The notes under the pieces: generated by a model | What the model saw: only the letters and a program-made list of their open reading frames with translations | Told to the model about the DNA's origin: nothing | Databases searched by the model: none | Shown: in pieces, positions 705 through 51,167 of the stretch | Layout: each line of letters opens with the position of its first letter | Numbering within the stretch: the stretch's first letter is position 1 | Position numbers and translations under genes: made by a program | DNA from: an uncultured archaeon | GTDB taxonomy: Archaea > Asgardarchaeota > Lokiarchaeia > Sigyniarchaeales > SOKP01 | Assembly (NCBI GenBank): GCA_964486045.1 | Contig: CAZALK010000001.1 | Coordinates: forward strand, 128,001-192,000 | Direction of reading: 5' to 3' | Length of the DNA stretch: 64,000 nucleotides

Positions 705-2231
705 TTGATTGATAAATTTAAAAATTTAAAACTTGACCGCCAATGGTATTCCACGACCCTAAAGAGTATTGGTGATGGGGTAATAGCAACCGATAAGGAT
801 GGTAGAATATTATTCCTTAATTCGGTAGCAGAGACCATAACAGGTTGGGCTTTTGAAGAATCAACCGGTTTAGATTTAGAAAAAGTTTTCAATGTTATGA
901 ACGAAGAGACTAGTGAAAGAGTTGATAACCCTGTGGAAAAAGTTATTGCAACTGGAAATGTTGTTGGTCTATCAAATCACACAATATTAATAAATAAAGA
1001 AGGAAAAGAAATTCCCATTGATGATAGTGGTGCTCCTATAAGGAATGAAAAGGGTGAAATAATCGGTGTGGTACTTGTTTTTAGAGATATTTCTGAAAGA
1101 AAACGATCACGGGAAAAATTAAGACGAATAGAAGAGGATTTTCAGAAACTGTTTAACAGTATGGTTACTGGTTTTGCTCATCATAAAGTTGTCTTTGACG
1201 ATAAAGGAAAGCCCATAGATTATATTTTCTTGGAAATAAATCCGATGTTCGAGAAATTAACCGGGTTAAAAAAAGAAGATATCATTGGAAAAACCGTTAC
1301 TGAGGCGCTTCCTGGAATAGAAAATTCAGAATTCGATTGGATCAATTTTTATGGGGAAGTTTCACTTACTGGGGAAAAAAAAGAATTTGAACAATTTGCA
1401 GAACCCTTAAATAAATGGTATTCTGTTGAAGTTTACAGCACTAAAACGGGCTATTTCACTACTATTTTTTCAGATATAACCAGAATTAAACAAACAGAAC
1501 AAAAATTGAAAAGTTCAGAAACAAAGTATCGAGAAGCTTATAATCGAGCTCAATTTTATAAAGATCTTTTTGCTCATGATATAAATAACATTTTACAGAA
1601 TGTTCAATCTTCTACTGACACGTTAATGCTAGCCAGAAAAACTGGAGAAGAAAAAGAAATTTCAAATGAGATGCTAAAAACCATTAAAACTCAAGTTAGT
1701 AGAGGTGCAAAATTAGTATCTAATGTCAGAAAACTCTCTGATATTGAAGATACTGAATTTCATTTAAAGCTAGTTGATTCAATTACCTTTTTAAAAAATG
1801 CAATAAACTTCGTAAATGAAAGTTATAAAGAAAAGAACCTTACTATTGAACATGAATCCGAAAATAATGAATATAATGTAAAAGCAAATGATCTTATATT
1901 AGACGTATTTGAAAATATATTAATAAATGCAATAAAACATAATAGAAAGCAAAATATCGAAATAATTATAAAAATCTCTAAAGAGAAAAAAGACGAAGAC
2001 CATTTTGTTAAATTCGAGTTCATAGATAATGGTATAGGTATACAAGATGAAAGGAAACAAATGATATTTCAAAGATCTAAGAGAACTAGTGTTACTGGAA
2101 TGGGATTGGGCCTATCTCTAGTAAATCACATCATAATGAAATACAAAGGGCAGATTTGGGTTGAAAATAAAGTTAAAGATGATTACTCTAAAGGTTCCAA
2201 TTTTATTTTATTAATACCTGAGGTGAAATAA
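705..2231 (+). CDS. PAS-PAS sensor histidine kinase
   Basis: Two PAS domains (SIGDGVIATD..., FNSMVTGFA...), H-box AHDINNILQ, N-box NILINAIKH, DNGIGI and GMGLGL. Confidence 0.93.
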   Translation: MIDKFKNLKLDRQWYSTTLKSIGDGVIATDKDGRILFLNSVAETITGWAFEESTGLDLEKVFNVMNEETSERVDNPVEKVIATGNVVGLSNHTILINKEGKEIPIDDSGAPIRNEKGEIIGVVLVFRDISERKRSREKLRRIEEDFQKLFNSMVTGFAHHKVVFDDKGKPIDYIFLEINPMFEKLTGLKKEDIIGKTVTEALPGIENSEFDWINFYGEVSLTGEKKEFEQFAEPLNKWYSVEVYSTKTGYFTTIFSDITRIKQTEQKLKSSETKYREAYNRAQFYKDLFAHDINNILQNVQSSTDTLMLARKTGEEKEISNEMLKTIKTQVSRGAKLVSNVRKLSDIEDTEFHLKLVDSITFLKNAINFVNESYKEKNLTIEHESENNEYNVKANDLILDVFENILINAIKHNRKQNIEIIIKISKEKKDEDHFVKFEFIDNGIGIQDERKQMIFQRSKRTSVTGMGLGLSLVNHIIMKYKGQIWVENKVKDDYSKGSNFILLIPEVK

Positions 2232-2232
2232 G

Positions 2233-2601
2233 TTAAAAACGATTTTTATTGCTGAGGATGATAGAGATCTTCAAAGGTTATATGAACTACTCTTAAAAAT
2301 GTCGGGATTCCAAGTATTAGGGATTGCGAATAATGGAGATGAGGCAATAAAAATGTTTAAATCATTTCAAAAAAAACCGGATATCATAATCTTAGATTAT
2401 AGAATGCCGATTAAAAATGGGATTGATGCTCTGAATGAAATCTTAGAAATTGATAATAGCTCAAAAATTATATTTGCAAGCGCTGATAGAACTATAAAAG
2501 AGGAAGTGTATCTTCAAGGAGCAATGGGATTTTTAGATAAACCATTTACGCACAAGAAATTGATGACTGTATTAAAAAGTATTCTAAATGACTCACCCTA
2601 A
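2233..2601 (+). CDS. Stand-alone response regulator receiver (CheY-like); true start lies upstream of the ATG at 2299
   Basis: In-frame upstream sequence gives LKTIFIAEDDRDLQRLYELLLK (beta1 plus acidic pocket), then DYRMP, FASA and KPF; GAGGTGA at 2220-2226; in-frame TGA at 2224. Confidence 0.9.
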   Translation, partial: LKTIFIAEDDRDLQRLYELLLKMSGFQVLGIANNGDEAIKMFKSFQKKPDIIILDYRMPIKNGIDALNEILEIDNSSKIIFASADRTIKEEVYLQGAMGFLDKPFTHKKLMTVLKSILNDSP

Positions 2602-2649
2602 AATAATATACAATTTGATACTTACCCCGAGATTACTATTTAAAACGGA

Positions 2650-49377: not shown

Positions 49378-49531
49378 TACTCTCTATTCTATATCTCTCT
49401 TTACTTTACTTCTAGTAAAAATATTGATAGATTTACATTTAATACGTTAACTTAAAGAACCTTAATCTTTATTTTTGTTTAAAGAATGCCATGAATTTGT
49501 AATAAAACATGAAACTTCTTCTACTCAAGAA

Positions 49532-51130
49532 TTAATCTAGAACCAATACACCATCTGTAAAAATAAAAGTTATCCGGTTTTCTCTTATCCATTCCTTTCC
49601 AAATTCTTCTCTATACTCGGGATCAGAATATTTATCGTTAGTGATAAATCTGCAATTTTGTTTTCGAGCTAACTTTAACACGAATATATCTGCCTTCCTA
49701 TCAGCAGGTGCTTGTCTGATAATTCCTTCTTTTACTAACTTCCTAAACTCAACTTCATCATCAACATGGTGCAATGTATTGGCATCTGTTATAAGGATCG
49801 GGTAAAAATCTTCAGAAATGATCTGGTCATTGATGAGAAGAACGTTTTGTGTTTGCATGTTTTGATTTTTGTCTAAGTCTGCCATTAAAATATTAGTAAG
49901 ATCTACTATAACTTTCTTAAGATTTTTTGTACTGTTAGAAAGACTGTTTCTCACTAAATTTTTATTATTAGAACTAGACGGTACTGATTGAATTCCTAAT
50001 TTATTCTCAATTTCATCTAAAGTCTCAAACATCCACGCTTTGAATATTGGAAAATCTTTAACAGAAGGTATTGTACTACTTATTATTTTTTTTATGCTAC
50101 TACTCACTTTCTTGACCTCCCTTATTTTTACCTTATTTTTTTCATTATATTTATTTGCGATTGGGGGAATATTGAGCTCTTTCAAAATAGATTCAAAATC
50201 AATACAGTCAGTCTCAGTGAGCTGGTATTGTGAAAGACCCATTTCTGACCACTCCTTTACAAAAGATTCGGGAATCCCTTCTTTCCAGTGGTGATTTCTT
50301 AAGTAATTATATAATTCCACAGGATTAAAAAGCTGTCTTAGACCAAGGTGGGAAGAATTAACTTTCTTACTACGATAATCATGTAAGAGCTGAATAAATT
50401 CCTTCCCTATATTTTTATTACGGGTAACTAAAATCCCGTATTCATCAGAAAAATCTTGTAATTTCTCATTAATACATTTTTTCCCCTGAGATACGTCATT
50501 TATTTGTAATTGGGAAATGTCTGGTGTCTCGATCTCGAAATAATTACTTGTGAATTCTAATATTTTAGTCCAATATTTTGGATCAAAGTCATTTAGTAAC
50601 TGTGGAAGGGTGTCCAGAGAGTTATTTTGGTTGAGTTCTGTAAAAATCCGGGAGGAGACCATCTTAATTTTTTGAATGGTATCTTGTAATATTTCTTTAT
50701 TACCTGAGCTGGTAATAAGGTACTCTTCAAAGTCTAAATCTTGTTCATCTAAATTGAGAAAATAATTGCTTTTTTTGTTGTAAAATACAAATGTGCTTCC
50801 ATTTACTAACTCAGAAACATTCACGCGAACATTTAGAACACAACGGATGTTTTTAAGACTCATAACCTCCTTAACTTTATCTTTGTCTAAATTATAAATA
50901 AAATAAAGTGATGGTAATTGAGAATATGTATTTGTTGATTCAAATTCTAATAAATCCTTTAAATTATGTAACGCTGTTGACTCTAAATCTACGATGTTAT
51001 GTCCTGCTGTAAAAATTTCAAGTGAATGAAGATGTTTTAAGTCCACATAGGGAAAAATAACTATATTCTTCTGCTGAAAAAATAAAATATTTAAAAATTC
51101 AGGAGTAATAAAATCAGTTCCAGTATCTAC
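49532..51130 (-). CDS. Protein with a C-terminal NYN/PIN ribonuclease domain (Zc3h12a/Regnase-like) and an unknown N-terminal region
   Basis: VIVDLTNI, TDA, ADIFVLKLA, ITNDKYSD; track start is GTG 51046, but the frame is open up to an SD-positioned GTA at 51130. Confidence 0.8.
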   Translation of the reverse strand, partial: VDTGTDFITPEFLNILFFQQKNIVIFPYVDLKHLHSLEIFTAGHNIVDLESTALHNLKDLLEFESTNTYSQLPSLYFIYNLDKDKVKEVMSLKNIRCVLNVRVNVSELVNGSTFVFYNKKSNYFLNLDEQDLDFEEYLITSSGNKEILQDTIQKIKMVSSRIFTELNQNNSLDTLPQLLNDFDPKYWTKILEFTSNYFEIETPDISQLQINDVSQGKKCINEKLQDFSDEYGILVTRNKNIGKEFIQLLHDYRSKKVNSSHLGLRQLFNPVELYNYLRNHHWKEGIPESFVKEWSEMGLSQYQLTETDCIDFESILKELNIPPIANKYNEKNKVKIREVKKVSSSIKKIISSTIPSVKDFPIFKAWMFETLDEIENKLGIQSVPSSSNNKNLVRNSLSNSTKNLKKVIVDLTNILMADLDKNQNMQTQNVLLINDQIISEDFYPILITDANTLHHVDDEVEFRKLVKEGIIRQAPADRKADIFVLKLARKQNCRFITNDKYSDPEYREEFGKEWIRENRITFIFTDGVLVLD

Positions 51131-51167
51131 TTTTCATCACCTTCTCTGGTATAGCTATGTAAATAAT

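Follow-up and report, generated by a model that had tools for sequence, protein, structure and literature searches.

The window analysed here, a stretch of 64,000 nucleotides (nt) from an uncultured archaeon (G000:C1:128001-192000, G000 being the source genome), carries four genes whose conserved reading frames open at TTA, ATA or GTA, 5-6 nt behind a strong Shine-Dalgarno (SD) motif. An earlier note on this DNA had taken these codons as signs of a relaxed initiation code and had placed the host among the Loki-type Asgard archaea, an affiliation that is borne out (Promethearchaeota). The source genome comprises 5.18 Mb in 45 contigs at 31% GC, and its DNA is found in marine-sediment metagenomes. 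The support presented below consists of sequence comparison and genome statistics, and initiation itself is deduced from these. The four sites and the genes that they precede are as follows (aa, amino acids).

2220-2226, plus strand: site 1, SD GAGGTGA, 6 nt before TTA 2233-2235 of the response-regulator gene
2233..2601, plus strand: response regulator (REC domain), 122 aa when read from TTA, with Pfam Response_reg from residue 4
3162-3156, minus strand: site 2, SD GAGGTAA, 5 nt before ATA 3150-3148
2650..3150, minus strand: conserved 166-aa protein of unknown family, read from ATA, N-terminus conserved in orthologues
47622-47627, plus strand: site 3, SD AGGTGA, 6 nt before ATA 47634-47636
47634..48317, plus strand: conserved 227-aa protein of unknown family, read from ATA on the basis of the orthologue alignment
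51142-51137, minus strand: site 4, SD AGGTGA (AGGTGAT if 51136 is included), 6 nt before GTA 51130-51128
49532..51130, minus strand: 532-aa protein with a C-terminal NYN (Zc3h12a-like) RNase domain (Pfam), read from GTA

All four SD-codon motifs reported in the earlier note are present in the sequence. The 16S rRNA ends in GGATCACCTCCTAA, so that the full SD complement is GGAGGTGATC. In each of the four stop-to-stop open reading frames (ORFs), the interval from the upstream in-frame stop to the flagged codon contains no ATG, GTG or TTG, the stop being a TGA at 2224 (site 1), 47625 (site 3) and 51136 (site 4) and a TAG at 3180 (site 2). The in-frame TGA 2-3 codons upstream to which the earlier note had pointed is indeed present at three sites, but since the TGA of GGTGA falls automatically in frame at a 6-nt spacing, it does not constitute an independent observation. 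The parallel drawn with canonical genes holds, as the ATG codons at 6256 (cdc48), 27012 and 40602 share the SD spacing of 5-6 nt. Sites 1 and 4 belong to downstream cistrons. At site 1, the SD overlaps the final codons of an upstream histidine kinase gene with a TAA stop at 2229-2231; the kinase stop and the response-regulator start lie one base apart (window 2229-2235), a geometry kept in orthologues and paralogues. A hybrid kinase, or a programmed frameshift fusing the kinase to the REC domain, was considered and ruled out, since all orthologues have their own SD and ATA directly after the kinase stop.

Orthologues were retrieved by genome searches, and the codon aligned to residue 1 was located by tblastn. 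At site 1, this codon is ATA in 13 of 13 same-genus orthologues, behind AGGTGA-type SDs and followed by KTIFIAEDD, and TTA in G000; paralogues start at ATG or ATT. At site 2, where a Pfam scan of the protein gave no match, G000 and the four genomes nearest to it share an ATA, 15 others of the genus have ATG, and 16 further metagenome-assembled genomes (MAGs) have ATA (10), ATT (1), ATG (3), GTG (1) or GTA (1). The site 3 codon, followed by VDxHxxSFFGQ, is ATA in two genomes, ATC in one and ATG in 17. At site 4, G000 has GTA and other genomes have ATA (2), GTG (5) or ATG (10); metagenome contigs add the three relatives nearest to it, at 80-83% identity, each with an ATA that follows a strong SD, and others with ATG, GTG or TTG. 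In all, ATA is the codon of the four closest orthologues. The alternation of ATG and NTA among orthologues, for which the earlier note had proposed to look, is therefore seen at the flagged sites, along with GTG, TTG, ATT and ATC. Because residues 2-15 are conserved and the SD is kept at the same distance in all four orthologue sets, the four codons occupy homologous start positions, and on this comparative evidence all four are taken to be true start positions.

Gene callers chose the nearest ATG or GTG downstream as the start of these genes, and many members of the site 2 family have Met at residue 10; if automated annotation were right, the in-frame stretches upstream would be untranslated. 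This appears very improbable. A response regulator beginning at its first ATG (2299) would lose its acidic pocket, some site 2 orthologues have Ile and not Met at residue 10, and the SD is placed 5-6 nt before the NTA codon and not before the downstream ATG. The conservation of residues 2-15 argues against it at all four sites, and at least 10 of the 20 other genes submitted to a domain test, described below, would lose the N-termini of their domains. The truncation of N-termini by annotation that the earlier note had foreseen is found at sites 1 (100 aa annotated versus 122), 2 (157 versus 166) and 4 (504 versus 532).

SD-led start codons across the genome

Upstream of 1705 unambiguous ATG starts, a G-rich peak lies at -14 to -8, where GGTGA occurs 52 times versus 4 in a control window, with a broad GGTGA-to-ATG spacing of 4-10 nt. 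A naive tally of the triplets following every GGTGA gave no start signal, most matches lying inside coding sequence, and an ORF-anchored analysis was used instead. In stop-to-stop ORFs of at least 150 codons, every SD 5-mer before the first canonical codon was considered, and the in-frame codon 5-7 nt downstream, counted from the GGTGA-equivalent end, was scored (n = 385). ATG was the most frequent (94), followed by ATT (36), ATA (33), TTG (32) and ATC (16), and then by GTG (7), ACG (5) and GTA, TTA and CTG (4 each).

When SDs without a nearby canonical start are considered, in-frame ATT, ATA or ATC are found in 25/67 cases at a spacing of 5, 47/79 at a spacing of 6 and 22/92 at a spacing of 7, versus about 5-10% at most other spacings and 10/155 out of frame at a spacing of 6. 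Over spacings 5-7, these codons amount to 106/573 in frame versus 64/957 out of frame (Fisher p = 3.7e-12), and a reverse-complement control motif yields a flat profile of about 12%. The 106 in-frame cases, all with an SD of at least 5 nt, stand a median of two codons after an in-frame stop. The share of ATT/ATA/ATC climbs with SD length and exceeds the ATG count once the SD reaches 6 nt, as the following tabulation of ORFs of at least 100 codons indicates.

Longest SD match 4 nt: ATG 280, ATT/ATA/ATC 179, out-of-frame expectation ~138
Longest SD match 5 nt: ATG 79, ATT/ATA/ATC 61, out-of-frame expectation ~29
Longest SD match at least 6 nt: ATG 30, ATT/ATA/ATC 45, out-of-frame expectation ~9

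Consistently, in the orthologue sets of the flagged sites, the longest SD averages 5.5 nt at ATT/ATA/ATC and 4.3 nt at ATG, a difference whose statistical significance is inflated by the kinship of the genomes. Only 24% of the ATT/ATA/ATC starts are operon-internal (at most 40 nt from the end of the upstream ORF) versus 49% of SD-led ATG starts, and they therefore do not appear to depend on translational coupling. Two background models give an excess of about 55 genes (reverse-complement background, SDs of at least 5 nt) and about 110 genes (out-of-frame background, 4-nt SDs included), from which it is estimated that on the order of 60-120 genes of the source genome would start at ATT, ATA or ATC.

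The protein products provide a further line of evidence. In 52 of the 106 cases, the first canonical codon lies at least 20 codons downstream, and 20 of these 52 genes were scanned against Pfam. In at least 10 of the 20, a domain matched from profile position 1-5 starts 2-25 residues into the frame read from ATT/ATA/ATC, before any canonical codon is reached. These genes encode the following.

DegT aminotransferase
Ras-like GTPase (P-loop included)
Actin
Fer4 cluster fused to ETF-alpha
CdhC (acetyl-CoA synthase)
HIT
NucS_C-like nuclease
ETF
JAB domain
GTP cyclohydrolase FolE2 (GCHY-1)

For CdhC, ATT is found only in G000 and ATG in 18 orthologues, which indicates that some of these codons were gained recently. 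A second actin paralogue (G000:C24:48523-49665, plus strand) has an ATT start behind AGAGGTGG that is kept in five genomes (loci L232-L236), and the main actin gene (C1:345094-346218) starts at ATG without a strong SD. Within the window, a further ATT at 53725 (minus strand) lies 5 nt behind AAGGTGA, in frame with a 220-codon membrane-protein ORF; it may be another start of this kind, an ambiguous one given the in-frame TTG and GTG just upstream.

Altogether, the genome counts, the orthologues and the domains support the proposal of the earlier note that this lineage initiates at codons other than ATG, GTG and TTG behind strong SDs. They define a different set of codons, however. The NUA rule held that a modified or altered initiator anticodon (f5C34-like, for example) or a relaxed aIF1 would let UUA, AUA and GUA serve as starts, whereas the enriched codons are AUA, AUU and AUC, joined perhaps by ACG and CUG, all single mismatches to AUG. 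A third-position A is not special (ATT 36 and ATC 16 against ATA 33), and the enrichment of NTA at SD spacing that such a rule would produce is found for ATA and not for TTA or GTA, which are depleted genome-wide when taken together (17/573 in frame versus 51/957 out of frame). It is true that all four flagged NTA codons are at homologous start positions, that the two SDs preceding TTA and GTA in G000 reach 7 nt and that, of about 150 orthologue starts aligned, the three deviants are confined to GTA and TTA, with no CTA, AAA, ACA or AGA. An NUA rule nevertheless appears improbable, as the genome also has a single initiator tRNA gene with a CAU anticodon, and TTA and GTA derive from ATA and not from TTG or GTG (see below).

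The interpretation that we favour, with a probability of about 0.8, is that AUA, AUU and AUC are genuine start codons of SD-led genes in the genus, TTA and GTA being rare one-step derivatives of ATA. ATA 3150 and ATA 47634 are then ordinary members of the AUA/AUU/AUC class. The spread of this class among related archaea was approached with 400-kb samples of other genomes and SDs of at least 5 nt, G000 being counted over its whole genome; one outgroup (G033, 54% GC) is too GC-rich for an SD-based test.

G023 (same genus): ATG 9, ATT/ATA/ATC 8, background 3.3
G038 (another family): ATG 19, ATT/ATA/ATC 9, background 2.8
G032 (another family): ATG 23, ATT/ATA/ATC 7, background 5.5
G000 (whole genome): ATG 154, ATT/ATA/ATC 124, background 49

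From these small samples, the density of ATT/ATA/ATC starts looks strongest in this genus.

Authenticity and fate of TTA 2233 and GTA 51130

Both codons adjoin runs of A, and the ATG-AAAA-GTA of site 4 can be read as a one-base slip, so that an assembly or sequencing error, either in a third base that is really G or in a homopolymer (AAAA or AAAAA) whose length shifts the frame, deserves consideration. The chance of such an error is negligible. Over 47500-51300, which covers sites 3 and 4, the sequence is matched exactly by a Logan contig that an independent assembler produced at 270x depth from what is probably the source run. A second strain, represented by a separate ENA assembly and by a Logan contig of another run, shares TTA and GTA with G000, from which it differs at 4 positions in 3.3 kb around site 1 and at 18 in 2.3 kb around site 4. 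Orthologues from dozens of genomes moreover have ATA, ATT or ATC at the same codons. The slip at site 4 is ruled out by the independent assembly together with the second strain.

The earlier note had derived the flagged codons from TTG, ATG and GTG by a third-position G to A change. For TTA and GTA, the relatives point elsewhere: their ATA codons indicate that in this species alone the first base of an ancestral ATA was changed, to give TTA 2233 and GTA 51130. The two are thus rare doubly mismatched variants and not the expression of a general NUA code. Among strong-SD starts genome-wide, one further plausible doubly mismatched case was found (C12:58426).

A codon with two mismatches to the CAU anticodon is expected to be a very weak start, as all-codon measurements in E. 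coli indicate. It may therefore be asked whether the two changes are recent start losses that left the genes silent, on the way to becoming pseudogenes or initiating elsewhere, for example at ACG 2239 or ATT 2242 in the case of site 1. The lack of genome-wide enrichment and the restriction of both codons to this species, the closest relatives keeping ATA, are what such losses would leave. The possibility is a serious one, which we nonetheless consider doubtful, since both ORFs are intact and, in each orthologue set, the SD of G000 is the longest.

The case against loss is best documented for site 4. Its ORF shows 16 differences between the two strains, none of them creating a stop; 10 are synonymous and 6 non-synonymous, which gives a dN/dS of 0.15 and a binomial p of 2e-4 for the synonymous excess. 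As both strains carry GTA, purifying selection has acted on the protein at a time when the gene already had this codon. No alternative start is available near the conserved N-terminus, the next ones being an ATT at codon 8, without an SD, and a GTG at codon 29. A second GTA has arisen independently at a homologous start, that of a site 2 orthologue in another Promethearchaeota MAG (L228, JBHLLU010000017.1, position 1001), where the candidate codon follows GAGGTAA with a 5-nt spacer. The GTA gene is thus probably still translated. Site 1 is less constrained: its ORF shows zero differences between strains, and the in-frame ACG 2239 and ATT 2242 follow the SD at 12 and 15 nt. Initiation at either in place of TTA could leave the REC fold intact, the Pfam domain starting at residue 4. 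The TTA gene may accordingly be translated from TTA itself or from one of these two codons.

Initiator tRNA, aIF1 and the proposed mechanism

The altered initiator anticodon suggested in the earlier note is not borne out. A single initiator tRNA (tRNAi) gene, without paralogue, lies at G000:C1:583602-583726 (plus strand). It has a CAU anticodon in the loop CUCAUAA, an A1:U72 pair and an anticodon stem of three G-C pairs (GGG/CCC), and an intron of 49 nt follows its anticodon loop. The gene was found by a pattern search, having been missed by ARAGORN, with or without intron settings, and by an Rfam tRNA scan. Only 29 tRNA matches were obtained in the whole genome, which suggests that it contains many intron-bearing tRNAs.

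The fidelity factor aIF1 (SUI1) is encoded outside the window (G000:C1:612478-612693, minus strand) by a gene devoid of any ATG. Its start is an ATT preceded by AAGGTTGTGATAAGAGAGT, with an in-frame TGA and TAA just upstream, and this arrangement is kept in all readable same-genus orthologues (about 21 genomes, another locus being masked). In other families of the order, the gene starts at TTG, GTG, ATA or ATG. aIF1 discriminates against non-canonical starts in Sulfolobus (as cited in PMC6237735), and residues R31, Y32 and K34 of loop 1 are required for 30S/mRNA binding in P. abyssi (PMC6237735). In the present lineage, loop 1 shows no genus-specific change, its RKWGR/K motif being common to the whole order.

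These elements can be assembled into a model in which the single ordinary tRNAi would pair with AUA, AUU or AUC through a third-position mismatch, a long SD/anti-SD duplex at the optimal spacing of 5-7 nt would compensate for the mismatched codon, and aIF1 would set the stringency of start selection. The conserved AUU start of the aIF1 gene suggests, by analogy with known systems, an infC-like autoregulation, in which aIF1 would limit its own synthesis by a feedback of the infC/eIF1 type.

A broader version of this model would see start selection as globally relaxed and eukaryote-like, any single-mismatch codon (AUA, AUU, AUC, ACG, CUG) and occasionally GUA or UUA being usable as a main start when anchored by a long SD, with stringency set through an autoregulating aIF1. 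It is put forward tentatively, as less likely true than not. ACG and CUG may be used as rarer starts. Candidates of this type stand 6-7 nt after GAGGTGA at G000:C30:16874 (plus strand), C2:207646 (minus strand) and C1:309649 (minus strand), and 15-69 codons separate them from the first canonical codon; one of them is a response-regulator paralogue in which ACG-TSIFIVEDD corresponds to ATG-ATIFIVDDD in relatives.

Several points weigh against the use of AUA, AUU and AUC as genuine starts with TTA and GTA as their derivatives. The support for initiation at these codons is comparative throughout. The estimate of about 100 genes hinges on the background model, the same codons being found in frame behind about 12% of control motifs, and the small size of the outgroup samples makes the lineage-specificity of the density uncertain. 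The unchanged loop 1 of aIF1 means that relaxed proofreading finds no explanation in the sequence. Lastly, TTA and GTA, unenriched and confined to the species, behave as poor or failing starts would, and site 1 has its two in-frame substitutes for TTA.

Known weak starts and significance for Asgard genomes

ATT, ATA and ATC figure in the start list of NCBI translation table 11, and weak starts of the AUU, AUA and AUC type are known in bacteria, as in E. coli infC and pcnB. In S. aureus, four such sites have been described (infC, cvfC1, ccpN and citZ), all with extended SDs and about 10-30% of AUG expression, infC itself starting at AUA (PMC13009471, 2026). The Asgard codons resemble them in standing in frame at the optimal distance from an extended SD, in being conserved among relatives and in being missed by gene callers, which truncate the proteins, as well as in the use of such a codon by the gene of a fidelity factor, aIF1 here and infC in bacteria. 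They differ in the host, an archaeon in which the gatekeeper would be aIF1 rather than IF3, in their number (tens to about 100 genes versus four in S. aureus), in exceeding ATG behind SDs of at least 6 nt and in including putatively abundant or core genes (the actin paralogue, CdhC and ETF). Mitochondria likewise initiate at AUA, AUU and AUC, with an f5C34-bearing tRNA-Met. The start codons are the same; however, mitochondria have no SD, use one tRNA-Met for initiation and elongation and have reassigned AUA to Met, whereas the present system combines SDs with a dedicated tRNAi and gave no sign of a reassigned AUA, for which no search was made.

Hints are all that was found in the archaeal literature. 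Ribosome profiling of Haloferax volcanii placed about 30% of putative alternative start sites at near-cognate codons, which the authors set aside as possible false positives and which were mostly not main ORF starts (PMC7261190). The present case would likewise be one of archaeal near-cognate initiation, with comparative evidence that bears on the main starts of conserved genes. A recent Asgard review, which makes no mention of non-canonical starts, describes the SD as rarely used in Lokiarchaea (PMC12993045). The weak start is of a known kind, and its novelty lies in the archaeal host and the unusual density.

The autoregulation of eIF1 through a poor start context in eukaryotes and that of infC through its AUU in bacteria have both been discussed (PMC6237735). 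As in both, the gene of a factor that rejects poor starts has a poor start here, throughout the genus, and a feedback is suggested by the analogy. The weak element in aIF1 is the codon, as for infC, and not the context, as for eIF1. A further difference is that the other families of the same order start aIF1 at TTG, GTG, ATA or ATG, as noted above.

For annotation, gene callers limited to ATG, GTG and TTG would give a shortened or misplaced N-terminus to a few percent of these Asgard genes, removing catalytic or binding residues from proteins such as the actin paralogue, CdhC, ETF and small GTPases, which would then affect predicted structures, the calling of signal peptides and comparative work on eukaryotic signature proteins. 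For the biology of the genus, weak starts would be about as frequent as ATG among the minority of genes led by an SD, and the strengths of SD and codon would co-evolve. The conserved AUU of aIF1 offers a testable link between the infC-type control of stringency in bacteria and the eIF1-type control in eukaryotes. If true, the aIF1 feedback would be the archaeal counterpart of eIF1 and infC autoregulation, in the archaeal lineage closest to eukaryotes.

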